IMG/VR virus record: IMGVR_UViG_3300048576_000053
Span: 1 to 30,296 of that record
Strand: one strand, 5' to 3'
Length of the DNA stretch: 30,296 nt
Origin: a virus
Taxonomy: Duplodnaviria > Caudoviricetes
Made by a program: the position numbers and the translations under genes. Positions 1,264 to 28,531 of the stretch are shown one piece after another. Each line of letters starts with the position of its first letter. The stretch's first letter is position 1. Under the pieces are notes generated by a model. The model was not told where the DNA came from. It searched no databases and saw only the letters and a program-made list of their open reading frames with translations.

Positions 1264-1692
1264 ATGATTTTCTTAAATCCCTCTATAATTGCCGCTATTA
1301 TGTCCATATTGGTTTCTGCCCTTGTATCGTTCTTAGTGAGCAAAAAAACAGATCATAGACACCTTAGCGACCAATTAGATGAGTTATTAAAAATCAGCAT
1401 ACAATACCCTTATCTGGAAAGTGAATTATTTGCTGAGAGTTGGGAAGCAAACAGAAAATCACAAGATGATAAATACTTGCGTTATGATTTGTATTGTACT
1501 CGGTTATTCAACTATTTCGAAAGGCTTGCGAAATATCACAAGTATAATGCTGATAAGATTGCAAACGATGTAGCTATTAAGGATTGGGTAAGGCTACACC
1601 GAAGCTATTGGAATAATCCTCCTTCAAAATATGAAAATGTCGATAGCTATGTGAAAGAATTCAGAGACTTAATAGGTACATATCTAAAATAA
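1264..1692 (+). CDS. Hypothetical protein with a single N-terminal TM helix (accessory/moron gene)
   Basis: 142-aa ORF with GGGAG RBS; hydrophobic SIIAAIMSILVSALVSFLV followed by KK and a helical soluble domain. Confidence 0.8.
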   Translation: MIFLNPSIIAAIMSILVSALVSFLVSKKTDHRHLSDQLDELLKISIQYPYLESELFAESWEANRKSQDDKYLRYDLYCTRLFNYFERLAKYHKYNADKIANDVAIKDWVRLHRSYWNNPPSKYENVDSYVKEFRDLIGTYLK

Positions 1693-1709
1693 AAAGAGGG
1701 GTAACAACA

Positions 1710-2426
1710 ATGAACAAAAAAATATTATTAATTGGAAATAGCGATGGGTTGCCGGGAGTGAAAAAGGATTTTGTCAATTATGAATCTTTTTTTATGAGTC
1801 CAATCGGTGGAAATTGGTACAATACGGAAATAATAAGGATGATGAATCCATCGCAACAAAACTTAAGAAACGAACTGAAAAGATTACAATCGCTTAAGCT
1901 CGATTATTTGATTGTAATGTTTAGTGGACATGGGGGACAAGCAAGAGAGGTCGTAATTGAAATAAATGAAAAAGAAGAAAGAATATACGAATCTGAATTG
2001 GTGAATATTGCCGAACGACAGATAACGATTCTTGATTGTTGCAGGGTTCGGATTGCTGAATCGATTAATCTATCTGATTCTGTGATGATGAGAAAGGCGG
2101 CCACAACAGAAATAAATACGAGACAAGAATATGAAAAAAGAATTATGCAAGCTATTCCGCAACAAGTAAGACTGTTTGCTTGCAAAGTTGGGGAAACAGC
2201 AGAAGATACTTCTGACGGTGGAATTTATTCTCTTAAATTAATTTCGGCTGCCAAATACTTCGATACTGATTATTTAACTATTGGGAAAGCTCATTCTGAG
2301 GCCACTACAAATACAACGGTTTCCACGAATTATAGACAGCATCCGGATTCAATATTGCCAAAGTGCTTATCCAGTCAAGACTTAATCATAAGCATAAATC
2401 CAAGATTAGGGAAGAAATCTTTTTAA
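1710..2426 (+). CDS. Caspase-like cysteine protease (peptidase C14 / metacaspase-like)
   Basis: KKILLIGN first strand, FSGHGG (catalytic His), ILDCCR (catalytic Cys), LFACKVGETA..GGIYS. AGAGGGG RBS. Confidence 0.88.
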   Translation: MNKKILLIGNSDGLPGVKKDFVNYESFFMSPIGGNWYNTEIIRMMNPSQQNLRNELKRLQSLKLDYLIVMFSGHGGQAREVVIEINEKEERIYESELVNIAERQITILDCCRVRIAESINLSDSVMMRKAATTEINTRQEYEKRIMQAIPQQVRLFACKVGETAEDTSDGGIYSLKLISAAKYFDTDYLTIGKAHSEATTNTTVSTNYRQHPDSILPKCLSSQDLIISINPRLGKKSF

Positions 2427-4179: not shown

Positions 4180-4371
4180 TTATTGCTCCGCTTTATTATC
4201 ATTTTCAGCAATCCAGTTGTTTGCTATTATTTGAATGTCGCTTAATAATTCTTCCTGACTCATATTTAATTGTTCATCTGTCAAAGGGTTCAAATATTCC
4301 CCATATTTTTCATGTATTATCTGATAGCATTTTTTGCCAGTAGCCGGGTCTGTAATTATGCTAATAGTCAT
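4180..4371 (-). CDS. Small acidic hypothetical protein after the fibre (possible fibre chaperone)
   Basis: 63 aa, TAATG-coupled to the fibre stop, GGAGG RBS. Confidence 0.6.
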   Translation of the reverse strand: MTISIITDPATGKKCYQIIHEKYGEYLNPLTDEQLNMSQEELLSDIQIIANNWIAENDNKAEQ

Positions 4372-7300
4372 TATTGTATCTCCTCCACTATCATTTCGGT
4401 ACCGCTGTAAACAGTAGTCGTTCCGGCGGCCTCTTTCCTTGTTTGCACTGCAATCGTCCCCGCGGTCGTACTCATATAAACGGTTATATCAGATATAAAA
4501 TATGCCTGTTGATTTGCGCTGGAATAGACAATGGTCGTATTGCCGACATAGTGTTCCTGATTGACGGTTTCCATTTTCCAAGTTGTAAACGATGACATTG
4601 TTGCATCTGTCGGCAAAGACATGAATAATGTTGCAGAACCTCCGGAATTATCGTTCTTCATTGAACCTTTCATTATGATATGATATTTCTTACTGGCCGC
4701 TGCCGAAAACGAAAGGCCGGTTACGGTTACATAATCAGCGGAAGTAGTAGTGAAATTTGATGTCCTGCGGTATGAAGTAGGGCCGGTATAAGCTTTGGGT
4801 GATATAAGTTGGAAATTTGTGCCGTCATAAATAACACTGATAAGCTGACCTGCAATTATATCTCCAGTCTGTAAATCAACATTATAATTTTTCTTTACAT
4901 ATTTGGGGCCGACAGAATTAACGTTCAATGTAACTGCATCGGTATTGGCAACATTTGCCAGAAAGTGTATAACCATACCAGTCGTATAAGATGTAATTGC
5001 AGGTGATAATGTAATAGCAAAGGCATCTGTTGAACCGGACGCGGCGGCATAAACTAAACTGCCGCTTTGTACTTTTGCCTCTGTTACTCCACCGCTACTC
5101 GAAGATGTTCCCCACGTTCCATCGCCTCTAAGCGTTTTTAACGAATCTCCGGGCAGTTTAGGAAGTAAACCGTGCATCGATGTCGAAGCGTTTTTGGTAG
5201 TAATATCAGTAAAAGTAATGTCGCTTTCCTGAATGTCCGCTCCGGCTGTAACTAAGCCTTTAGAATCGTATGTAATTTTAGTTTTAGTAGCTCCGGTTAT
5301 CGCTGTATTTTTAGCCGTGTAATATCCGTCTGCCGTTGCTTTAGAAATTGCGCTTGCTTCAATACCTGATAATTTCGTTTGCTCCGTTGCAGTAAAAGCC
5401 TTATTAGTTGTACCGCTTGCAATATCGTCCTGTGTTAAAGTTATATCCGTGCTTAATGCCTTACTGTTAATCGTCCGGGTATTCGGTACTGCCGTGAAAC
5501 CAAGCGCGTCCTGTTTATTACCCCATGTAGTTTTTTCAGTATCAGTAACAAATCTATAGCTTGCTGTCTGGGTAACTTTTGACGCATCGAGAGAGCTTGA
5601 GGCAGTAAGATAATTTGCTAAAGCATGATTACCCCATGAATAAGCCGCGTTTAATTTTCCTAACAGATTAAGAGTAAAAGCAGTATTCAATGAATCAATA
5701 ATTGATTTGTTTGAATGTGAATGCAAACTCGAATATGCAAGGTCGTAATTTGTTTTTAACGCCGTTGTAAACGATTCCGATGTATTATCTAAAATAGTTT
5801 TATTACTATGTGAATGAATAGCGTTGAAAGCTGAATTTATTTTGCCCTTTAGCGAAAGAGTGAACGCAACATCTGTTGAGTCCAATAATGCTTTATTTGA
5901 ATGAGTGTGAGTATTGGTATAAGCCGTGCCGAAATTAGATAGCTGTGTACTTGTCGGTATAGCGTAACCGGACGTAAGCGATAAGATACCAGTTGAATTA
6001 CTGTAATCTATACCTGTAATGCTTGAACTGATTGCCGCCCTTGAAAGTGCATCTGAATAATATTTGTTAGTTGTACCCTGTGAAAGATTATCTGTATTCT
6101 TAGCCGCAAACTTCGTATTGAAGCCCGTCGGAGTTAAATATTTTAAGCTATCCGCAATATTTAATTTTGCAGTTAATACATTGTAAAGGTCTGTCTGATC
6201 TGATAAACTCCCCTGCAATGTTCCCCAAGACGGCGCTCCGCTTGATACCGGCTTTAATTCAAATACCCAAACGGAATCCCTCCATACAGGTATATAGCCA
6301 TTTGTAGGTGTGGCATGACTCCATTTGTGCCCCTGCAATAGATTTGCGTTCCACTGTGCTGTAGTATTGCCGACCTGCGCGGCTGTTACTGCATGAGGAT
6401 TAGAAGTGCTATTCACATGAGTGCTTAAATCCGTACTGTTGGCTTTATTATTTAATAAAGCATTTGTTTCACTTTTGGAATAAGTAAGTGATTTGTTATA
6501 AACAGAATCTTTATTAGCCGGAATAAAACCGATTGTATTTTCTTTTCCGCTTAATAAATTATTGATTTCTGTTTTCGTATAAAGAGACGACTTCAAATAA
6601 ACGGAATCTAATTGAGCCGGTGTATAGCTTAAAAGATTTTGTTTTGCGTTCAATAAATTATTTACTGCTGCTTTGGTGTAAACATTTGCCGTGTCCGCTT
6701 TCAAGGCAGCCCTGGCATTTGTATAATATTTATTGCCGGTTCCCTCTGTTAAATTATCACTTGTTTTGCTGCTGAAATCAGTATTAAAGAGAGAGCTTGA
6801 ATAGTATTTATTTGTGGCTCCCTGAGTGATATTATCAGATGTTTTAAGGCTTAACCTTGAATCAAAGGACGTATTGAAGTTAGCGGAATTGAATTTCAAT
6901 CCAAATAAAGAGTCCGCTGTGATTTTAGTATAAACTCCGAGTTGCCCGGCAGTAACGTTGTGAGGGTTTGAAATATTGCTAATATGGTTATCGTAACCGC
7001 TTTTAATAGAGGTTGTAAACGCCTCTGTAATTAAATCCAACGTGCTTTTATTGCTATGAGAATGAGCATTACTAAAAGCGGATGCTAAATTGCTTATTTG
7101 AGTATCGGTTACAAAGCGGTATGAACTCGATTGAGTAATATTAGCCGGATTTGTAGCATCAATATTCGGCACGTTGCTTAAACCGATTTGAGTTTTATTT
7201 ACATTATGAGGGTTTGAAAAGTCCCGCACATGTGCGTTTACAGTTCCGGTATCTGCTTTAAGAGCCGATCTGTTTGAAGTATAGAATAAATTGTTTAATC

Positions 7301-7970
7301 CCTCTGATATGTTATCAGATGTTTTAAGGCTTAAACGGCTGTCAAAAGATGAATTGAAATCCGCACTATTTAATTTGAGTGCTAATAAAGAATCGAGCTT
7401 GTGCTCCGATACTTTAGCTGTATCAAGTTTAGCATTAAGCATGCCGTCAATCAGTAGCTTGCTGTAAAGCGATTCACCTGTAAAAGTATCGCCGCTTCTT
7501 TTTACGAAAAATCCATTAGTAATTTTTGAAATATCGATTGCAATAAAACGGGTTGCATTTGTCGGCAAATCTATTCCGTCGAATGGAGTCCTTATGTCTC
7601 CGATAATATTAAAGCTTCCTGTAAAGATTGTAAGAACATGGCTTGTATCGGCCTGTGTTTCGATGTCATAGAAGTAACTACCGGCTGTCAAGTCCCAAGT
7701 GTCATACTTTGTTAAGCTTACGCTTAATGTAGTCTTACCAGATGAATAAACTGCCGTTATTGTATTATCGGTATTCGATTTATCGATAAGCCTATTTGAA
7801 GATTCCAAGCGGTCTTTTTTAACAGTGAAATAAATATTGCCAGTAGAATAATCCCCGGCAGCTGTAAAAGTTAAAGTCTTTGAATCCCCCCGATATACAG
7901 TAATATTATTCGATACCTGACCGAATAAATTAGCTGTTATAAAAAGTAATATTAAAATATATTTATTCAT
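4371..7970 (-). CDS. Long repeat-rich tail fibre / receptor-binding protein with signal-peptide-like N-terminus
   Basis: Start at ATG 7970 after AAAGGG. BppU-like N-terminal domain (ITVYRGDS..YFYDIE); NPHxV, HxHSNK and TxDNxxxGxxNKYY repeats; KITYDSKGLVTAG motif; beta-rich C-terminal domains. Lies between tail tip and lysis genes. Confidence 0.8.
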   Translation of the reverse strand: MNKYILILLFITANLFGQVSNNITVYRGDSKTLTFTAAGDYSTGNIYFTVKKDRLESSNRLIDKSNTDNTITAVYSSGKTTLSVSLTKYDTWDLTAGSYFYDIETQADTSHVLTIFTGSFNIIGDIRTPFDGIDLPTNATRFIAIDISKITNGFFVKRSGDTFTGESLYSKLLIDGMLNAKLDTAKVSEHKLDSLLALKLNSADFNSSFDSRLSLKTSDNISEGLNNLFYTSNRSALKADTGTVNAHVRDFSNPHNVNKTQIGLSNVPNIDATNPANITQSSSYRFVTDTQISNLASAFSNAHSHSNKSTLDLITEAFTTSIKSGYDNHISNISNPHNVTAGQLGVYTKITADSLFGLKFNSANFNTSFDSRLSLKTSDNITQGATNKYYSSSLFNTDFSSKTSDNLTEGTGNKYYTNARAALKADTANVYTKAAVNNLLNAKQNLLSYTPAQLDSVYLKSSLYTKTEINNLLSGKENTIGFIPANKDSVYNKSLTYSKSETNALLNNKANSTDLSTHVNSTSNPHAVTAAQVGNTTAQWNANLLQGHKWSHATPTNGYIPVWRDSVWVFELKPVSSGAPSWGTLQGSLSDQTDLYNVLTAKLNIADSLKYLTPTGFNTKFAAKNTDNLSQGTTNKYYSDALSRAAISSSITGIDYSNSTGILSLTSGYAIPTSTQLSNFGTAYTNTHTHSNKALLDSTDVAFTLSLKGKINSAFNAIHSHSNKTILDNTSESFTTALKTNYDLAYSSLHSHSNKSIIDSLNTAFTLNLLGKLNAAYSWGNHALANYLTASSSLDASKVTQTASYRFVTDTEKTTWGNKQDALGFTAVPNTRTINSKALSTDITLTQDDIASGTTNKAFTATEQTKLSGIEASAISKATADGYYTAKNTAITGATKTKITYDSKGLVTAGADIQESDITFTDITTKNASTSMHGLLPKLPGDSLKTLRGDGTWGTSSSSGGVTEAKVQSGSLVYAAASGSTDAFAITLSPAITSYTTGMVIHFLANVANTDAVTLNVNSVGPKYVKKNYNVDLQTGDIIAGQLISVIYDGTNFQLISPKAYTGPTSYRRTSNFTTTSADYVTVTGLSFSAAASKKYHIIMKGSMKNDNSGGSATLFMSLPTDATMSSFTTWKMETVNQEHYVGNTTIVYSSANQQAYFISDITVYMSTTAGTIAVQTRKEAAGTTTVYSGTEMIVEEIQ
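6832..7334. repeat. 23-bp exact direct repeat within the fibre gene, 480 bp apart
   Basis: TTATCAGATGTTTTAAGGCTTAA at 6832-6854 and 7312-7334, within the duplicated FDSRLSLKTSDNI segments. Confidence 0.85.
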
Positions 7971-14508: not shown

Positions 14509-14834
14509 ATAGCTGTTATTACCGGCTTAATTGTAAACAGGTCTAAAACATCTGTTATGTTTTTAGGATAACCATAATTAGCTTTAGCTGTATAGCTAAC
14601 AGAGTAATTCCCTAACGATTCAGATGCCACGCCTTTTTTATTGGCAGGTTCCGCTTCAAATTTGATAATATTTGCAAGTGCTAACCTTAATGAAGCAGGT
14701 AAATTATCGTCTGTATATTCAGTATTACAGTAAGTGTTGATAATCTCGATGCCGACTGGTATCATTGCCGTTATGAATGCATCTTCGCTATCTGGCATTT
14801 TTGCCAATATCTTAATTTCATCAGGACTAATCAT
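14505..14834 (-). CDS. Head-tail connector/adaptor (SPP1 gp15 / HK97 gp6-like)
   Basis: INTYCN, GVASESLGNYSVSY motif. Confidence 0.85.
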   Translation of the reverse strand: MISPDEIKILAKMPDSEDAFITAMIPVGIEIINTYCNTEYTDDNLPASLRLALANIIKFEAEPANKKGVASESLGNYSVSYTAKANYGYPKNITDVLDLFTIKPVITAI

Positions 14835-15001
14835 TTTGCTTTACCTTTTTTGTTTTTCTTCTTAAAGATCGTCTTGATAGATTCGGGAGCTGCTTCTTTT
14901 GCTTCTTCAGATGTGGTTTCCTTTTGTTTACCCTGGCAATTATTAAGATGAATCGGTAATACTGTATCTGAATACTCACATCCGCATTTTTCACATTTCA
15001 T
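14831..15001 (-). CDS. 56-aa C2HC zinc-finger-like protein (not in the ORF track)
   Basis: Hand translation MKCEKCGCEYSDTVLPIHLNNCQGKQKETTSEEAKEAAPESIKTIFKKKNKKGKAK; GGAGAG RBS; ATGA overlap with the next gene. Confidence 0.75.
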   Translation of the reverse strand: MKCEKCGCEYSDTVLPIHLNNCQGKQKETTSEEAKEAAPESIKTIFKKKNKKGKAK

Positions 15002-15021
15002 AAATCACTCTCCATTTTATT

Positions 15022-15047
15022 AAAGGGAGCTTTTTAGGCTCCCCTTT
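15022..15047 (-). terminator. Hairpin downstream of the capsid gene
   Basis: Minus strand AAAGGGGAGC-CTAAAAA-GCTCCCTTT. Confidence 0.7.
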
Positions 15048-15082: not shown

Positions 15083-16333
15083 TTATCCTAAAATTCTTGT
15101 TGCTAATTCAGGAAATACAGCCTTAACGCCGTAAAGGGTATCAATCGAAAGAATTTCTTTCTTTGTAGTAATATCATATCCGGCAGTTACTCTTAATGCT
15201 ATCCCGTTGTAATTAACGGTATAGGACTGTGCGGCGCCAAGAGGCGCTTCAAGAGGTCTTGAAACGAATGCAAAAGCATTTTTAATAAATGCTAAGTTCG
15301 CAACGTGCGCACCGGCTGTTTTATCAGGGAATGTAACAACGTCGTCAACAGCATGAGCTGCTAAGACTTTTGTACTTGTGGTAATTGAAACATCGCCACT
15401 TACTGCTGCGGTATCGGAGGCAGCTGCATAGTAATATTTCTTGCCGCCTGAAGTAATATAGAAAATATCACCGGCTTTAATTGTTTCAGTACCGGCACCG
15501 CCTTTCAATATAATTGTATTTGAATCTTTAACGGCAAGTGTCTTTACTTTAGGAGTAGTTACAGCAGTGAAAGTACCGGCTGTATGAGTCTTTACATTCT
15601 GGCTCATATAGTTTTCAAGTCCGAATACTCTACCGATCGAACCCTCTCTAAGTGCCTGTGTTGAACCTGATTTTTCAGCATTTACCAAAGAGGTTAGCAC
15701 CTGAAATTTTGCCTGTGCATTGGGATCGAATACCGCAACGCGTCCGGTATTGGGAACTTGATTGTTGTTTAACATTTTAGCGGCATCTGCAAAATCGTCC
15801 AAAGCATCGGGAGTTGTTCCGGATGCACCAACAAAGTAAGGAACTGCCTTATAGCATTCACTCATAATGTCTGAATCTATCTTTTGCGAAATAGCCATCA
15901 TTGCCGGGTCAAGTATCTGCTGATTGAAGTCGTCAATGTTTAATGCACGTTCTTTGGAAGTCCATTCAACAGAGACATCTGCAATATGGCTTAATGATAC
16001 CGATACTTCGCCTTCAGTTATGCCTTGCAAGTTAATCGAGCTACTAAATTCATCCGCAACAAATACAGAGGGCTTCTTTACTCTGATTGTATCGCCCTGT
16101 TTCTGGAATGTATTTGAGAAATCCCCATAGACAAGTGCTTTCATTACAAGGAGATTCTGTAAGCGGAGCAAAGCCTCTCTTGCAATGACTGAAGTTGTTA
16201 AAAATACGTTAGCGACGATAACGCCGCCTTTAATTGTGGCCGGGTGGAACAACAGCGCCGCTGTTAATAAAAGCATGAATCCGGCAATCGATGCTAATAT
16301 CTGGTGTTCTTTGAAAAATGTTTTTATTTTCAT
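15083..16333 (-). CDS. Major capsid protein, P22 coat-like, with a 40-aa hydrophobic leader
   Basis: ANVFLTTSVIAREAL, QGDTIRVKKP, ALREGSIGRVFGLENYMSQN, an inserted beta domain and SIDTLYGVKAVFPELATRI. AAAGGA RBS before ATG 16333. Confidence 0.9.
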   Translation of the reverse strand: MKIKTFFKEHQILASIAGFMLLLTAALLFHPATIKGGVIVANVFLTTSVIAREALLRLQNLLVMKALVYGDFSNTFQKQGDTIRVKKPSVFVADEFSSSINLQGITEGEVSVSLSHIADVSVEWTSKERALNIDDFNQQILDPAMMAISQKIDSDIMSECYKAVPYFVGASGTTPDALDDFADAAKMLNNNQVPNTGRVAVFDPNAQAKFQVLTSLVNAEKSGSTQALREGSIGRVFGLENYMSQNVKTHTAGTFTAVTTPKVKTLAVKDSNTIILKGGAGTETIKAGDIFYITSGGKKYYYAAASDTAAVSGDVSITTSTKVLAAHAVDDVVTFPDKTAGAHVANLAFIKNAFAFVSRPLEAPLGAAQSYTVNYNGIALRVTAGYDITTKKEILSIDTLYGVKAVFPELATRILG

Positions 16334-16358
16334 TTCTATATCCTTTTTTTATGAATAA

Positions 16359-16946
16359 TTATTTTTTGGTACGCGCGGCGAAATATTCAGCATCCGACAT
16401 TTGTGAATAATCCTCGGCAGGGTTTGAATTGCCTGTATTAGGTTCGCGTCCACCTGCCTTAAACTTTTCGTCAACAAGCACTTTAAGAGTATTATTAAAC
16501 TCTGTCTCCAAAAGTGCTATGTTGTTTGAAGTGCTTTCTTCATCTTCGCCGACAAATCTTTCAACTAATTTTAGCGGTAGCTTCTTTTCGGTAGCGATGG
16601 ATATTGCTTTATTGAGCAAGTCCTTTTTCTTATTGGCAGTTTCGAGAGCTGCGATCTTTTCGTCCTGTAAACGGAGTCTTTTCTGCTCTTCAGTTTCGGC
16701 AGGGAATTTAATCTTGATAGCGTCCTCAATTAACCCCGGCATTGTTTTTTCCTTAAAGGTAGTAATGCCTTTTGTAACTGCCGCATCATTCAAACTTTGT
16801 AAATACTTTTTGCCAGTTTCATCTTTTTCCAAATAGTCCTTAACACTCTCAGGTGTGAGCGTCTTAAGTGCTTTTAAGAAAGTGATTTCGTCAGCTGTTA
16901 AAGCTTCATTCTTTTCAAGCTTCGCTAAAATCTTTTGTGAATCCAT
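16359..16946 (-). CDS. Capsid scaffolding protein (DUF4355-like)
   Basis: Charged helical protein; FPAETEEQKR, EKKLP..GEDEEST, MSDAEYFAAR C-terminus; directly upstream of the coat gene. Confidence 0.85.
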   Translation of the reverse strand: MDSQKILAKLEKNEALTADEITFLKALKTLTPESVKDYLEKDETGKKYLQSLNDAAVTKGITTFKEKTMPGLIEDAIKIKFPAETEEQKRLRLQDEKIAALETANKKKDLLNKAISIATEKKLPLKLVERFVGEDEESTSNNIALLETEFNNTLKVLVDEKFKAGGREPNTGNSNPAEDYSQMSDAEYFAARTKK

Positions 16947-17064: not shown

Positions 17065-17991
17065 TTATTTGAACTTGAGATTAAGCCATTCATCAAATTC
17101 AGGAGTAGCAGCACTGCCTTTGGCTTTGTTTGGGAATGTTTTTATTACACTTCGAGTTGTACAACGGCATTCGATATCTTCCTCCGGCAGTCCAGATAAA
17201 CGCGGTCCTTTAGTCTTAGCGCCATTCGGTAAAGTGAAATAGCCGTCGGCATCTGCTTCCTGTCCGTTCATTTTAGCGTGGTCATGCCTTTCTTTACCGT
17301 CCATGATTGTAGTCCACACTTCAACCATTTCAATGCCTAATCTATCAGCTGCGCTTTTTGCTTTATCGTAGCTTGTTTTATTAGCCAGTGATAACGCTCT
17401 ATTCGATTCAGTCCTTACAATTCTTTGTGCGCGTCCTAAAGAAATATCGACCTTATCGCTTAAAGCATGAGCCGTTTTGGAATATCCATCCCCTTTAATC
17501 AGGCCGGAGGTAATCGTTTGATTAACGTCCTGTGTAAGTTTAGTACCCCAAGCCTTTGAACGATCAATCCATGTAATCTTATCGAGTGGGTTCAATACGC
17601 TTGCATCGATTGCCGTTTTATTCAATTCAGTAAAACCTAACTTAGCTCCGATACCGGACTCATAAGCGTATGCAGATCTGTAATATGATTTCTCAAATAC
17701 TGTTTTAATCGCTTGCCGGGTAACTTTGATATTCTCTCCAGTAACGACTTTAATGGCTTGTGCAATTTCAGCCTCTAAACCTGTTAAACGATTATAGCGG
17801 TTAGCGTCTGCATAGCTCATTGTATCGCCGTACTTCTCATATAAGGCAGATACTTCAGCGCGGATATCATTAAGCACGGTTTTATAATTCAGGATTATCT
17901 GCTTTTCGGAATCAGCTAAAACTTTACGCGCTTCTTTATTGCTTAATTTAAGAAGCTCTGCTATTCTGCGGTTAATCTGTGTTATCGGCAT
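17065..17991 (-). CDS. Minor head protein (SPP1 gp7 / Mu F-like)
   Basis: RAQRIVRTESNRA, W..DGKERHDHAKMNGQ, EEDIECRC. Confidence 0.9.
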   Translation of the reverse strand: MPITQINRRIAELLKLSNKEARKVLADSEKQIILNYKTVLNDIRAEVSALYEKYGDTMSYADANRYNRLTGLEAEIAQAIKVVTGENIKVTRQAIKTVFEKSYYRSAYAYESGIGAKLGFTELNKTAIDASVLNPLDKITWIDRSKAWGTKLTQDVNQTITSGLIKGDGYSKTAHALSDKVDISLGRAQRIVRTESNRALSLANKTSYDKAKSAADRLGIEMVEVWTTIMDGKERHDHAKMNGQEADADGYFTLPNGAKTKGPRLSGLPEEDIECRCTTRSVIKTFPNKAKGSAATPEFDEWLNLKFK

Positions 17992-19354
17992 TGCCAGGTT
18001 CCAGATATGGATTCAAAGTGTCAGCTAATTCAGCTTTCATTTTATCGAGTTCTTCCTGTACGTTTGTAATGAAAGGCAGTAGGCTTAAGCGTGTTTCGTC
18101 TGAAATGTTCCCCTTGAATTTCATTTGTACATCTGCCAAATAGCCCAGGTCAATCGGCAGGTTTCTTGTAAATTGCTGTGCAATATCGGTGTATTCTACT
18201 TTTACATTACGTTTATTCCATGAGGAACAAACAATCCGATACATCTCGATATTTGCTTTTGAGAACTTAACTTCTTTAATGATTGCATCGTTCTCCATTG
18301 ATACGAGTTTCCATTTACGAGACTCCCCGGACATAGCGGAGCCTGAAAATTGTTCATCTCTCATATCGACCGCTTTGGTAAATTTGTAAATGTTTTCGTT
18401 CAATGTTTTCTTATGATTCTCAATCATTTGCACAGCATTGTCAAGCTGCTTTGTAATAAATTCAATTTTGTTCCCGTTAGGCATGAAGAAAGCTCCTGTC
18501 TGTCTGGCCTGTTGTATCGTTTCCCTTGTAGGTGCGGTATCGCCACTAAAGCCAAGATACGCCAGTCTGAATTCTTCTAATTCGTTTTGGATATCAGATA
18601 AATTACGGTCGTAAGCGTCAATCAATGTTTCGGCTTTCTCGAAATCGCCTTGTAGCATATCGTTATTCATATACCTGATTACAGGAACGTACTCAAATAA
18701 ATGAGGCTGTGGGTTTACCTTTTCGCTTGCGTCAAGGATATAATTGCCGGAATCGTCCTGAATGTAATATGTTACATTCTGCTTATCGTACCATTCAACT
18801 CTTGTCTTTTTCTTAGTCGCACCGCTTGCATCAATGCACTCAAGTTCATAATAAATCAAAGCATAATTAAGCTTATCGAGTATCTGGTCATAAACGAATA
18901 TCACTTCCCACGGGTTTATACTCATTACGCTTTCTTTCCCCTCTGTATCGATATAACAGAGCCTCGCACCGTAACCGCATATAGAAGCGAACCGGCCTGT
19001 GATTGCGTCCAAGTCCCTTATGTAGTTCCTCTGCATAAAGCCATTCAATTCATCAACCATATTGTCGGGGTATCTATCGGAGGGAAGAGAATATTTTACA
19101 GGATTGCCAAATATATATCCAATCTTTTCATCAACAATATCCCCTCTATAATCATTTTTAAGCTTGTTATTGATCTTCGCAGGGTCTTCAAAACTTCGAT
19201 GTTCAATCGGTACACGGCCTTTATAAGCGTGGAATAGTTCTATTGTTTTGTCTCGTAATCTCCGATGGTCTGCTATGAGGTCTTTTATGATTTGAGATGT
19301 GATTTGCCCGGACTGCCTTTTAATTAACTCATTGACTTGTGCGCTTGTGTACAT
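17972..19354 (-). CDS. Portal protein, SPP1 gp6-like
   Basis: NNKLKNDY..IVD..GYIFGNPV, LIDAYD, FSGSAMSGESRKWK, FTRNLP. Start moved to ATG 19354 after AAAGGA. Confidence 0.93.
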   Translation of the reverse strand: MYTSAQVNELIKRQSGQITSQIIKDLIADHRRLRDKTIELFHAYKGRVPIEHRSFEDPAKINNKLKNDYRGDIVDEKIGYIFGNPVKYSLPSDRYPDNMVDELNGFMQRNYIRDLDAITGRFASICGYGARLCYIDTEGKESVMSINPWEVIFVYDQILDKLNYALIYYELECIDASGATKKKTRVEWYDKQNVTYYIQDDSGNYILDASEKVNPQPHLFEYVPVIRYMNNDMLQGDFEKAETLIDAYDRNLSDIQNELEEFRLAYLGFSGDTAPTRETIQQARQTGAFFMPNGNKIEFITKQLDNAVQMIENHKKTLNENIYKFTKAVDMRDEQFSGSAMSGESRKWKLVSMENDAIIKEVKFSKANIEMYRIVCSSWNKRNVKVEYTDIAQQFTRNLPIDLGYLADVQMKFKGNISDETRLSLLPFITNVQEELDKMKAELADTLNPYLEPGNADNTD

Positions 19355-19521: not shown

Positions 19522-20772
19522 TTAGTAAAGTGAGGGAGCTGCCTTGAACTCACGGATTGTAATATATTTTTCAACTGAATATCTTAAAGGGTCAATTAAA
19601 TGGTTAAACGCATCGATAGGAGTGCTTAATGTAATGCCGTCTTTAACTTCCCAGGCATAATTATTTAATTCAAGTATAAGATTTGTGCATTTCGGATGCA
19701 CTATAATTTCAAATTGTGAAAGGAATTGAATTCCGTTATTGATACTATCTTTACCTTTTCTGGCTGCTTTAATCCTGCTTATGCCATAATTGCGGATTTC
19801 ATCAATACTTTTCGGTTCGCTCGAATCTGCGACTATTTCCTCTTTTGCGTAACCCATATACTTAATACGATTTGCTATGGCATCGTTTAATAAGCCACGT
19901 TCATAGAATTCATCAAAGCAATATAGTTTCTTATTCTGTGGGTCGATTAAAGAAGCTATGAAGCCGGACGGGTCAACCGTATATCCGAAATCCAAACCAA
20001 AGCATGATTTGACCTGTGGAAACTTCTTGATTATGTCCTGAATATTGAATTCTCTTTCAATCCAATTATCGAAAACCAATCCTTGAGATATTCCCCATTC
20101 TCCCAACCCCTCTACTTTGTAACGGCGTGGGTTCTTAGTCCTCATATCTTCAAATAGCTTCAAATCGGCATCGTCTAAAAATTCATTGCAAGTGTAATCA
20201 GTCGTAAGGGTGAATGTGTTATCGTCCGGATTATCGAAGAAACGCTTCTTAATCCAATGCTTTTCATTCCACGGGTTAAACGTGCCTGTAATCTGCTTAA
20301 ATAATCCTTCAGGCATTTCTCCACGAATTGACATATCAACTTTGTTGAAATCCTCTTCGCTCGATATTTGAAAGAACTCTTCAAACCACACCCAACATAA
20401 AACGCCTTTTTCGACAGTTATAGATGTTAAGCTCTGGGGATCGTCCATGCCTCTGAATAATATTTTTTGCCCTGTCGGTATATAGATAATTTCCAAAGGA
20501 GATAATTTACATTCAAATAGTCCGGCCACACCCAGACGATTAATAGCCCACTTTAATTGAGCATAAGTTGAATCTTTATGGTCTTTGAAGTATTTACGGA
20601 TAACCAACAGGTTAGCTCCGCGGTACTTCATAATATTGCAGATGAAATTCAAGGCTGCTGTTGTGGATTTCTTTGAACCTCTGCCGCCCTTAACAATACG
20701 ATAGCGTTTCCGGGTTTTCCAGTAATCCTTGTAACCTTTTCCAACGACCTTATTTAATTCGACTATTGCCAT
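19522..20772 (-). CDS. terL: Terminase large subunit, PBSX family
   Basis: KGGRGSKKS Walker A, WFEE Walker B, TFNP, GLDFGY and NHLIDPLRY nuclease motifs. Confidence 0.95.
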   Translation of the reverse strand: MAIVELNKVVGKGYKDYWKTRKRYRIVKGGRGSKKSTTAALNFICNIMKYRGANLLVIRKYFKDHKDSTYAQLKWAINRLGVAGLFECKLSPLEIIYIPTGQKILFRGMDDPQSLTSITVEKGVLCWVWFEEFFQISSEEDFNKVDMSIRGEMPEGLFKQITGTFNPWNEKHWIKKRFFDNPDDNTFTLTTDYTCNEFLDDADLKLFEDMRTKNPRRYKVEGLGEWGISQGLVFDNWIEREFNIQDIIKKFPQVKSCFGLDFGYTVDPSGFIASLIDPQNKKLYCFDEFYERGLLNDAIANRIKYMGYAKEEIVADSSEPKSIDEIRNYGISRIKAARKGKDSINNGIQFLSQFEIIVHPKCTNLILELNNYAWEVKDGITLSTPIDAFNHLIDPLRYSVEKYITIREFKAAPSLY

Positions 20773-20780
20773 ATAAAAAT

Positions 20781-20816
20781 AAACCCGCCTGAAGCCATTA
20801 AGCCTCAAACGGGTTT
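20781..20816 (-). terminator. Terminator-like hairpin between terS and terL
   Basis: Minus strand CCCGTTTGAGGC-TTAATG-GCTTCAGGCGGG (12 bp, three G-U pairs) then TTTATTTTT. Confidence 0.7.
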
Positions 20817-20834
20817 TTAATTCAATCCTTAATT

Positions 20835-21275
20835 TTATTCAAGATTATCAACAAAAGTAATTTTTCCCTCTAACATGCCGGATAAATCAAGCTTATTGAC
20901 TATCCTTTTCTTTAATGCATTGTATTCCCTAATCGCGGCGATCTTCGCCTTGAAATCAGCGTTTTGTGTTATTAGCAATTCGAGCTGTTTATCAACATAG
21001 GAATCATTCAGCCCTTGAAGTTCCAACAGTTCATTTATCCGTCTCAAAACGTTGGGATTTGTTAATAGCTCACTTGCCCTGCTTCTTGCTACTAAATACC
21101 AGTTGCCAGTCTTAGGTGGATTGTAAGCCTCAATATAACTTTGAGTGCCATTTCCAAAGAATTCCCTATCACTTGCGTATAGTTTGCAGAACATTTCTTG
21201 TTTGGGATTAAGCTCCCTATGAACGACTGCTTTCTTTGGATTAACCTTTTTCTTTTTTACAACTTTTTTAGGCAT
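20835..21275 (-). CDS. terS: Terminase small subunit
   Basis: LNPKQEMFCKLY..GNGTQSYIEAY..ASELLTNPNV pattern; upstream of terL. Confidence 0.88.
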   Translation of the reverse strand: MPKKVVKKKKVNPKKAVVHRELNPKQEMFCKLYASDREFFGNGTQSYIEAYNPPKTGNWYLVARSRASELLTNPNVLRRINELLELQGLNDSYVDKQLELLITQNADFKAKIAAIREYNALKKRIVNKLDLSGMLEGKITFVDNLE

Positions 21276-26197: not shown

Positions 26198-26345
26198 TGT
26201 TATTTGTTGAATTTAACTTTTGACTATATGGCTTAAGAGGCACCTTCATTAACTCATGCCATATCGGATATATGCCTGCAAGATATACAGCATCATTTTT
26301 ATGAGGTTTATCTTTTTCCTTTTTGGGTTTCGGTTGTTTTTTCAT
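26187..26345 (-). CDS. 52-aa basic hypothetical protein (not in the ORF track)
   Basis: MKKQPKPKKEKDKPHKNDAVYLAGIYPIWHELMKVPLKPYSQKLNSTNNRAV; ATGA overlap with the methyltransferase stop. Confidence 0.5.
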   Translation of the reverse strand: MKKQPKPKKEKDKPHKNDAVYLAGIYPIWHELMKVPLKPYSQKLNSTNNRAV

Positions 26346-28531
26346 ATTGCAAGATTCAACTGATTACGTTGTTCAATAATTGAATTGAGATTGCGCAATG
26401 CGGTATCGTAATAGCTCTCTTTTAATTCGATGCCTATAAATTTCCGGTTCATCTTTATAGCCTGATATCCCTCAGAACCGATTCCGGCAAATGGACTAAA
26501 TACTGTTTCACCCTCATTAGTCCATAAGGCAATGCACCTTTCAATAACAGAGAGCTGTAAGGGACAAATATGTTTTTCATCATTGAAATCTGTTCCCTCA
26601 CGGTTATTCAAAACGTCCGTACGCTTAATATCCATCCAGACAGGTGAAGCCCACTTTTGCCAGGTTTCAAGAGAGAAATTATTTTTTGTTAAATTCATTA
26701 CCGGCTCCCAGTCATCTTCATTACCGTCCCACTTCCTGAATATTGTAATATATTCAGCAAGTCCGGTTCCTGAATAAGTAGAATCGCCTGTAACTTGTTT
26801 ATAAAGCAGTCTTTGTGTTTTTGTGCGCTGCATTTCCAAAACCGGGTCTGTCCAAATTGTAATCTTTGAATGATATTTGAATCCTGCTTTTTCAACGGCT
26901 CTATGATTATCGCCAGTAAAATCATACAGGCCAGTATAACCGGCAGAGTTTTTATATCTTGCTAAATCTTTTGTGTGAACCGCAATCAATCTGCCCGGCT
27001 TTATTTTCCTATAAAGCTTTTTAAGCAGGAATTGATATTGCTTAAAGAACTCTTTATCGTCCACGCAGTTACCCATATCCCTTAATGAATCCGAATAGGT
27101 GTAGAGATTTGAAAATGGAGGAGAGAAAACAGCGAAGTCCAAAGAGTCATCTTGAATACTTTCTATTTCAGCTACTGAATCGCCATTGATTAAAGTAAAA
27201 TATTCGTTCTTTGTTTCTCTACGAGTATAATCCATTTTCAGGCGGTAGTCTTTTCCGTTAATCGATTTATTCATTTCTTCCTGTAACTCCTTAAATTGTT
27301 CCTCTTTCTTTTTTATTGAGCTTATTACATTCTGCATTGTATCAGTAGTGATTATGTAAATGTTTACTACTTTTGATTGACCAAAACGATATGAACGCCT
27401 TACGGACTGGTAAAGCATTTCAAAACTGAAATCGAGTGAGGCGAAAACCTGATTGTTGCAATTCTGAAAGTTCATTCCGAAACCGGCTATTTTTGACTTT
27501 GTTATCAAGACTCTGAATTTGTTATCTGCAAAGTCTAATAGCTTTTGCTCTTTCGTTTCATTCTTTTCACTGCCAGTTACTTCGATTGCTCCGGGGATAA
27601 GATTTCTTAAATATTCGCCTTCCTCATTTTGTTTTATCCAGATTATAAATGGTTCGTCTGAATTATTAACTATTTCGGCGGCGTAGTTTAATCGCTCTGT
27701 TTTCGTATTACGCAATTCAGTGTTGAAATTAGTAGCATTGACAGAAATGTCATTAAAGAGTTTATCCGGCTGTCTTTTTGCTGTTATTACCATTTTTTCA
27801 TGGTAGCGCAATTCAGGGAGAATATATTTTGAACCGTCAAAACCGATATCGGCAGGATTTGAAATTACTATTGACCAACTTCGCATCCAGCCGTAAAAGT
27901 CTTTTTTAGCGTATCGTTTTAATCTGTAATTGTTAATTGATTCGTCTCTCATAAACCACCTCTGCCGCATATCAGCAGAATCCAAGACGTTCAAAAATTC
28001 AGAATGATTCCCGATCTCGTTCAAATCATTCGGCGCCGGTGTAGCCGTGCATGCTAACTTATAAGGCGTACTTTCAAAAGTGCTTATAATCAGCTTCTTA
28101 TATTCCCCGGTGTAATTTTTCAATATGGAACTTTCGTCAAGGACGATACCGATAAAAATGGTACAATCAATTTTATCGAGTTGCTCATAATTCAGGATAT
28201 AAATCCCTTTAGATGTTTGTCCGGAATATCGTTCAACTTTTATCCCAAACTTTTCACCCTCTTTAATCGTTTGCCCCGATACTGCCAAAGGGCAAAGAAT
28301 TAAAACAGGTTTATCGGTATGCTTTACGACCTGATAAGCCCATTCGAGCTGCATTATCGTTTTACCCATACCAGTATTTGCAAATATTGCATATCTGCCT
28401 TTTCTTAAAGCTTCGCATACAATATATTTTTCAAAATCGAATAAATTTTTATTCAACTGTTTACTTGATATTGAGAATCCGGCATCGGCAATATTCTTTA
28501 CTTTACTTTGTAAAAATTCAGTGTAGTTCAT
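26342..28531 (-). CDS. SNF2-like helicase fused to a beta-class N4/N6 DNA methyltransferase
   Basis: N-terminal TGMGKT, LDESS, CTATP, GFGMNFQ, QSVRRSYRFGQ; C-terminal FSPPF, KHICPLQ, SPFAGIGS. Confidence 0.9.
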   Translation of the reverse strand: MNYTEFLQSKVKNIADAGFSISSKQLNKNLFDFEKYIVCEALRKGRYAIFANTGMGKTIMQLEWAYQVVKHTDKPVLILCPLAVSGQTIKEGEKFGIKVERYSGQTSKGIYILNYEQLDKIDCTIFIGIVLDESSILKNYTGEYKKLIISTFESTPYKLACTATPAPNDLNEIGNHSEFLNVLDSADMRQRWFMRDESINNYRLKRYAKKDFYGWMRSWSIVISNPADIGFDGSKYILPELRYHEKMVITAKRQPDKLFNDISVNATNFNTELRNTKTERLNYAAEIVNNSDEPFIIWIKQNEEGEYLRNLIPGAIEVTGSEKNETKEQKLLDFADNKFRVLITKSKIAGFGMNFQNCNNQVFASLDFSFEMLYQSVRRSYRFGQSKVVNIYIITTDTMQNVISSIKKKEEQFKELQEEMNKSINGKDYRLKMDYTRRETKNEYFTLINGDSVAEIESIQDDSLDFAVFSPPFSNLYTYSDSLRDMGNCVDDKEFFKQYQFLLKKLYRKIKPGRLIAVHTKDLARYKNSAGYTGLYDFTGDNHRAVEKAGFKYHSKITIWTDPVLEMQRTKTQRLLYKQVTGDSTYSGTGLAEYITIFRKWDGNEDDWEPVMNLTKNNFSLETWQKWASPVWMDIKRTDVLNNREGTDFNDEKHICPLQLSVIERCIALWTNEGETVFSPFAGIGSEGYQAIKMNRKFIGIELKESYYDTALRNLNSIIEQRNQLNLAI

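Follow-up and report, generated by a model that had tools for sequence, protein, structure and literature searches.

The window (the entire 30.3-kb stretch analysed here) is a fragment of a temperate tailed phage, estimated by CheckV to be 48% complete and carrying an integrase gene at 178-1185. On its minus strand, genes for the small terminase, large terminase, portal, MuF protein, scaffold, coat, and connector follow one another as a contiguous head module (Table 1). The coat open reading frame (16333-15083, minus strand) encodes 416 amino acids, and both its PF11651 match (residues 41-416 on profile positions 2-423), which places the protein in that family, and its phrog_283 match begin at residue 41. 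With an AlphaFold model of the coat (pLDDT 74), the top Foldseek matches were the coats of Sf6 and P22 (E between 1e-19 and 1e-17, TM ~0.6).

Table 1. Positions in the window of the head genes and of the features in and around the coat leader
Feature	Position	Strand	Evidence
Large and small terminase genes (cytoplasmic DNA packaging)	19522..21275	-	PF04466, PF17288, PF03592
SPP1-type portal, without signal-like start	17972..19354	-	PF05133; signal-like scan passed over portal
MuF / SPP1 gp7-like minor head protein	17065..17991	-	PF04233, TIGR01641
Separate scaffolding protein, without leader	16359..16946	-	PF14265, phrog_172, alignment
Ribosome-binding site AAAGGA, with a 7-nt spacer to ATG 16333 of the long coat ORF	16341..16346	-	anti-SD pairing -5.4 kcal/mol
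40-residue coat leader	16214..16333	-	outside PF11651; conserved in kind; purifying selection
Basic N-region, residues 1-11 (3 K/R, 1 E)	16301..16333	-	2-4 K/R in 29/30 leaders
TM1, hydrophobic helix of residues 12-29 with predicted membrane insertion	16247..16300	-	insertion energy -1.1 kcal/mol
Second uncharged run (residues 36-51), spanning the junction; candidate for a marginal return helix (TM2)	16181..16228	-	>=15 uncharged, 30/30
Junction motif (Gly, three hydrophobics, invariant Ala41, Asn42); candidate cleavage site	16208..16228	-	30 leaders compared
Predicted mRNA hairpin covering the inner SD-like site and the GTC junction codon	16211..16228	-	window only, not conserved
Mature-type P22/Sf6-like coat domain, residues 41-416	15083..16213	-	PF11651 E 4.6e-50; phrog_283; Foldseek

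The P22 and Sf6 coats begin at the domain itself and are uncleaved. The window coat resembles them (PF11651; PDB 8i1v, 5l35) in its fold from residue 41, its separate scaffold, and the lack of a prohead protease, while it adds 40 residues with a membrane-type helix and is accompanied by a portal and a minor head protein of SPP1 type. The sequence-only reading that drew attention to these 40 residues was borne out in its description: the good ribosome-binding site stands ahead of ATG 16333-16331, the basic start and 18-residue hydrophobic core are present, the codon before Ala41 is GTC (residue 40, 16216-16214) and offers no canonical start, an SD-like AAAGGCGG lies just ahead of GTT-ATC-GTC, and a P22-like coat domain and a separate scaffold are both encoded as described. 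The core (residues 12-29) is uncharged, with a mean Kyte-Doolittle value of 2.48 and a hydrophobic moment of 0.09, and the AlphaFold model gives a helix at residues 11-29 followed by a low-confidence, unstructured linker (residues 30-42). Contigs from one study span 16280-16429 without differences, the junction lying outside their cover. The comparisons below confirmed, at the level of sequence, that the coat's membrane-type leader is real and conserved but optional.

Among the best 120 matches to the coat, 27 bear a leader of this kind, namely the window's protein and 26 of the 119 others (51-76% identical, from Ignavibacteria-type prophages), with leaders of 34-40 residues; one of the 27 is N-terminally short, one further protein (P0116, below) has a different leader, three are partial, and the remainder start at the domain. 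A profile search returned no further leader-bearing member among its best 120. The 240 fetched loci comprised 16 with a leader, 215 without, and nine unscored, and scanning 401 host-class genomes gave four matches, two of them already known and two leaderless. Leader-bearing matches in genome collections are titled Ignavibacteriales, Ignavibacteria, Melioribacteraceae, Bacteroidota, and in a single case Acidobacteriota; leaderless matches at greater distance are nearly all Bacillota. The best matches among cultured phages were below 45% identity. An apparent match between the leader and Streptomyces phage Hiyaa was set aside, as it sits in that phage's upstream gene.

The leaders diverge in sequence yet keep their layout of 2-4 basic residues (the N-terminally short P0020 being the 30th leader in this K/R count), 14-19 uncharged hydrophobic residues with low hydrophobic moment, and a polar loop. 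A purine-rich site precedes the first ATG in all 12 leader loci checked at the DNA level, with predicted anti-SD pairing of -3.7 to -6.6 kcal/mol. Most pairs were saturated at synonymous sites, and the informative ones gave dN 0.12 against dS 1.16 (L165/L007) and pN 0.29 against pS 0.99 (window/L163); on these values, the leader is under purifying selection. Because it is shared by 26/119 homologues, is preceded by a ribosome-binding site in 12/12 loci, and has dN far below dS, the leader is not a product of chance. One lineage, that of P0116 (L015:8921-11122, L018:7562-9763), has a different and longer hydrophobic leader that ends in a Phe-Gly motif and occurs on both coat and scaffold; P0116 was excluded from the 30-leader counts, and its leader is an independent acquisition within the same coat family. 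No rhomboid was found in the L015 and L018 records, both of which are incomplete.

Aligning homologues, which the sequence-only reading had suggested as a check, gave a divided answer. Leaderless relatives with ATG at the junction do exist (L081, L089, L003, and L085), each preceded by a ribosome site and, 3-5 codons upstream, by a stop in frame, but the idea that the upstream leader would then be nonconserved failed, since it is conserved in many others. The gene order of L089 is that of the window from the replication genes through the tail. Leader and leaderless coats, 70-76% identical, occupy near-identical head modules, as in the window and L089. In a mature-domain tree built from 80 rows (71 of them different, the three partial proteins dropped), leader state changes at least 11 times, eight of these forced by well-supported branches, with the call "leaderless" for protein-only rows depending on the gene caller. 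No gene co-varied with the leader in 20 loci, alignment of the scaffolds gave no consistent difference between leader and leaderless forms, and O-glycosylation-type motifs did not differ (2.7 per leader protein vs 2.5 per leaderless protein). Since the leader has been lost or gained at least 11 times without a co-varying gene, it is not essential to the head; by these comparisons it is optional, a point that the earlier reading missed.

Predicted insertion energies, computed with Hessa parameters, favour membrane insertion of TM1 in the majority of leaders (32 rows, median -1.0 kcal/mol; length and moment as above in the 30 leaders), and the basic N-terminus predicts an N-in orientation for helix 12-29. 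A hairpin is proposed because an N-in TM1 would push the coat outward, yet packaging is cytoplasmic, the coat must work in the cytoplasm, and the signal-like scan of the window found no signal-like start on terminase, portal, or scaffold. The charge bias around TM1, the loop, and a second run fits such a hairpin: the loop has a net charge of 0 or below in 27/30 leaders, an uncharged run of at least 15 residues containing Asn/Thr/Gln crosses the junction in 30/30, and a net charge of +2 to +4 follows this run in 31/32 rows. Three leaders have Lys47 (about two independent events); their run is still 15-16 residues long, with the upstream charge further off. Several observations weigh the other way. 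The predicted insertion energy of TM2 is marginal (+2.2 kcal/mol in the window, range +2.2 to +3.3), the basic stretch after the junction also occurs in most in-clade leaderless proteins and is thus not leader-specific, and the excess of uncharged N-arms in leader over leaderless proteins (24/27 vs 10/19, p 0.015) is not significant over independent pairs (median p 0.125).

Numbering the junction on the assumption of a cut following Ala41, the 30 distinct leaders share G/S/T at P5 (30/30), V/I/F/L at P4 (30/30), Ala at P1 (30/30), and Asn at P1' (28/30), with mostly hydrophobic residues at P3 and P2 and, at P2', Thr in 25, Asn in 2, and Val, Ser, and Ala in one each. The junction Ala is found in only 8/19 leaderless in-clade proteins, the others having Pro, Ser, or Gly instead (Fisher p 3e-6, kinship uncorrected); over eight independent pairs the direction was the same in 5.2 on average and never reversed (sign-test median p 0.06). 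The conserved positions make the junction look like a recognition site. According to the accessible text of two reports, GlpG prefers Ala at P1, a large hydrophobic P4, and a non-hydrophobic P5 (PMC4253528; PMC2941825), and the junction would fit these preferences, with small P1 and large P4 in 30/30 leaders each if the cut follows Ala41. It would likewise resemble the site in Providencia TatA (cut by AarA), as far as the available portions of these papers describe it, in its P1 Ala, large hydrophobic P4, non-hydrophobic P5, and candidate helix-breaking residues downstream (PMC2941825; PMC4253528). The exception is P2', for which the TatA motif prefers a hydrophobic residue; further, the single membrane helix of TatA is a true one, with Phe at P2' (PMC2941825, in part), whereas the coat leaders have a marginal helix and mostly Thr at P2', and a capsid protein would be released. 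The junction motif is also a common one, and Ala41 could equally be P1', a cut after hydrophobic residue 40 leaving an N-terminus like that of the leaderless forms.

Rhomboids with catalytic Ser and His motifs were present in 41/41 host-family genomes and in four of the five prophage-bearing genomes, where they lie on other contigs or 415 kb from the prophage; none was on a prophage contig or near a prophage in the five. Since rhomboids are nearly universal (14/14 control genomes), their presence in hosts means availability only. On the phage side, no rhomboid was found in the window or nine related virus records (one complete, eight incomplete), in 269 loci once the host's own rhomboid is set aside, or among viral contigs searched with the host rhomboid, and a portal scan of viral contigs had no matches. 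Two candidates for a rhomboid-bearing phage were rejected: MT835518.1 (L269), filed as bacteriophage, is in fact bacterial chromosomal DNA (flagellin, glycogen, and cell-wall genes by eye), and the capsid protein of phage DLP5 has no leader. Prp was found in 0/5 host genomes, which are possibly incomplete, and in 3/14 control genomes, and the Prp-type pattern of the same short leader on coat and scaffold was not seen, as the scaffolds of this clade are leaderless. A complex prediction for the G007 host rhomboid with residues 1-62 of its prophage coat scored 0.00 and was used neither way.

Of the two explanations in the sequence-only reading, the first, a membrane tether with a host membrane peptidase, agrees with all the tests made and is our best model on the sequences compared. 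In its specific form, which we favour only tentatively, a membrane hairpin precursor would be cut at Ala41 by a host rhomboid, freeing a P22-type coat into the cytoplasm. Each coat copy would be translated from ATG 16333, its basic N-terminus staying inside while helix 12-29 crosses outward and leaves the short neutral-to-acidic loop outside. The marginal run 36-51 would then return inward, keeping the capsid body and its basic stretch (residues 52-66) in the cytoplasm, and would present the features at which rhomboids cut, namely an N-out/C-in orientation, residues that break helices, and a motif of small P1 and large P4. About ten residues of the run would remain after cleavage, too few to anchor, and the coat could assemble on its scaffold, the tether possibly delaying or localising this assembly. 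Because sister phages manage without a leader, the tether would be an accessory step. This model is supported by the predicted insertion of TM1, the charge pattern, the match of the invariant Ala, P4, and P5 to GlpG preferences, and a host rhomboid where Prp and phage rhomboids were not found; it is weakened by the marginal TM2, the P2' residues, the near-universality of rhomboids, the incompleteness of the window and 8/9 virus records, and a dispensable leader, cleavage of the coat in 80alpha being dispensable too in the available text (PMC5744158). The broader claim, in which the entire HK97-fold shell of a tailed phage would be built from a membrane-hairpin precursor with a housekeeping rhomboid of the host serving as maturation protease, is slightly more doubtful still.

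It is unlikely, though worth weighing, that the leader is a Sec-type signal cut at Ala41 or nearer the helix by signal peptidase I or another host protease, export then aborting and the coat sliding back, or that a cytoplasmic cut falls just before Ala41. The leaders do possess an n-h-c layout, with the basic n-region and hydrophobic h-region of Sec/signal peptidase I substrates; Ala at -1 combines with I/L/V/A at -3 in 29/30, Gln follows the helix directly in 15/30, as in host signals, and a cut before Ala41 would give a leaderless-type N-terminus. However, Ala41 lies 10-19 residues beyond the helix in the 30 leaders, and the c-region expected of signal peptidase I substrates is lacking: a small residue followed by Gln (the Q-rule) occurs in 3/30 leaders and is absent from the window's, vs [AGS]-Gln within 8 residues past the helix in 32/43 non-lipoprotein signal-like starts from 400 kb of host genome. 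Where Gln does follow the helix, the preceding residue is F/L/V/I in 13/15, and the +1 residue at Ala41 would be Asn or Thr, set against a signal-peptidase Q-value of 77% for Ignavibacterium album in the accessible part of one report (PMC5837995). The fibre of the same phage begins with a textbook host signal, so the phage can write one where export is wanted.

Nor is it probable that the leader stays uncleaved and never crosses the membrane, with its hydrophobic helix inside the shell aiding coat folding or clustering as a miniature delta-domain, even though the head module holds no detected protease, linker 30-42 is unstructured in the model, the leader is optional, and, in the portion of the report available, 80alpha with an uncleavable coat is viable (PMC5744158). 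A separate scaffold is present, without consistent difference between leader and leaderless forms, and the HK97-type delta-domain pattern (a head-module protease and no scaffold) was not seen, given this scaffold and no PF04586 match. A non-amphipathic, insertion-prone helix is normally captured by membrane-targeting machinery, and the leader has just such an 18-residue helix with favourable predicted insertion energy. The Ala that is invariant in leader forms only points to a recognition site.

A phage protease that we missed, encoded in the absent part of the genome or belonging to an unrecognised family, is very unlikely to be what removes the leader. The window is a fragment, many open reading frames have no family, and two protease-type genes did appear: Pfam scans of window ORFs found a single one, the caspase-domain cargo gene at 1710-2426, and an SDH/ClpP-like protease gene (L241:1679-2611) occurs in G002, a complete relative. 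Both are cargo near the integrase; they are unrelated to each other, however, and neither turned up in G001, a leader-bearing record of 38 kb. The earlier remark that no prohead protease is seen stood, in that the head module is contiguous and PF04586 had no match. The MuF protein matches phrog_595 ("head maturation protease") over profile positions 43-326 of 513 only, i.e., the MuF-like part, and neither Pfam nor NCBIfam found a protease in it. No protease was found in the head module, and neither 20 head-region loci nor the listed parts of G001 and G002 contained an ORF with at least four membrane segments, which together with the rhomboid searches speaks against a phage-encoded enzyme.

Least likely of all is the second explanation of the sequence-only reading, two isoforms in which a long membrane or exported form starts at ATG 16333 and the real coat at an inner Ile or Val codon. 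SD-like pairing of -7.1 to -7.8 kcal/mol does precede the junction in 6/12 loci, and the junction codon is ATG in three and TTG, with plausible spacer, in one. But across the 12 DNA-checked loci this codon is otherwise GTC (window), GTA (2), TTA (2), TTT (1), and CTG (2), a non-start (GTC, GTA, TTA, TTT) in 6/12 including the window, and SD-like pairing is weak (-2.7 to -3.4 kcal/mol) at the three loci with ATG. A sequencing error at GTC was ruled out, as homologues have other non-start codons there. Further, the inner SD-like pairing is not stronger than in synonymous shuffles (window p 0.955; combined p 0.96 over 10 loci), being accounted for by Lys/Asp/Gly codons, and all four Gly codons are in use at the site. 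The window's site is also paired in a predicted hairpin, which is itself no more stable than synonymous shuffles (p 0.34), and a conserved mRNA structure at the junction was not supported. Near-cognate starts would hardly be able to supply the most abundant virion protein. The two-isoform explanation thus has little support, and every coat copy is most likely made with its leader on. The remaining probability includes a role that the freed leader peptide itself may have.

Tailed-phage coats are taken as soluble cytoplasmic proteins that are cut, if at all, by soluble proteases. M13 procoat is a hairpin, but one cut by signal peptidase I to give a coat that remains in the membrane and is not of HK97 fold; the precursor predicted here would share its inside basic N-terminus, outer loop, second helix, and inside basic C-flank. 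Among tailed phages, the available text on 80alpha describes coat and scaffold leaders of 13-14 residues that are soluble and cut between F and A by host Prp, with cleavage of the coat proving dispensable (PMC5744158). Alike are the N-terminal coat leader, the lack of a phage protease, the implication of a host enzyme, and a similar SPP1-type head module, whereas the leaders here are 34-40 residues long, membrane-type, and on the coat only, in hosts where Prp was not detected. In Porphyromonas gingivalis prophages of the Nixviridae, according to the portion of the report at hand, major capsid proteins carry signal peptides with removal by a prohead protease presumed (PMC10367356); the signal-like leader and the Bacteroidota-group phage are in common, with no prohead protease found here. 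T4 and SPN3US proheads, in the accessible text of one report, assemble on the inner membrane with the portal as anchor (with YidC) and a phage-encoded, soluble protease (PMC9026906). Membrane-linked head assembly ended by proteolysis would be the shared feature, with the candidate anchor here on every coat subunit.

The coat leader thus looks like a host-dependent variant of leader-bearing capsids. Signal-like capsid leaders are already in print (PMC10367356, as far as its available text goes), and a host-rhomboid step for tailed phages was not found described; searches of a mostly open-access literature listed nothing on a membrane-anchored HK97-fold coat or a rhomboid-processed capsid protein. 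If true, a membrane-inserted coat precursor would add a membrane step to head assembly, and an abundant viral substrate would make the role of bacterial rhomboids, whose natural substrates are few, directly testable. The clade is a handy test case, as leader and leaderless coats occur side by side and no phage protease was found that would confound the result.

Several minor features accompany these head modules. In tail-fibre position, the window encodes a 1199-aa protein (4371-7970, minus strand; likely start ATG 7970 with its own ribosome site) whose N-terminus is the host-type Sec signal noted above and ends Gly-Gln. Its sole homologue, P0122 (48% over the first 170 aa), likewise has a host-type Sec signal, which suggests that the window's fibre may be exported; D-S/T-hydrophobic motifs number 11 against 4.1 expected in P0122 and, not significantly, 11 against 7.6 in the window fibre. 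CHAP-type endolysins of three relatives (L164:8265-8852, L003:12811-13365, L163:12998-13543) start with Sec signals, two of which end Ala-Gln, and the lysis cassette lies between head and tail genes in most relatives and after the fibre in the window. MuF proteins of L163 (6648-8981) and L164 (3098-4882) carry an intein, that of L163 with an additional C-terminal ADP-ribosyltransferase domain. Directly after the coat gene, a terminator-like hairpin (15025-15043) precedes a small Cys/His-bearing ORF (14831-15002, minus strand) with look-alike ORFs in six relatives. A 729-aa fusion of an SNF2-type helicase with an N6/N4 DNA methylase (26342-28531, minus strand) is also found in L089, L002, and L162. 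Adjoining the integrase on the opposite strand (1264-2426, plus strand), a cargo pair encodes a 142-aa membrane-anchored ORF and the caspase-domain protein (PF00656), possibly a defence module.
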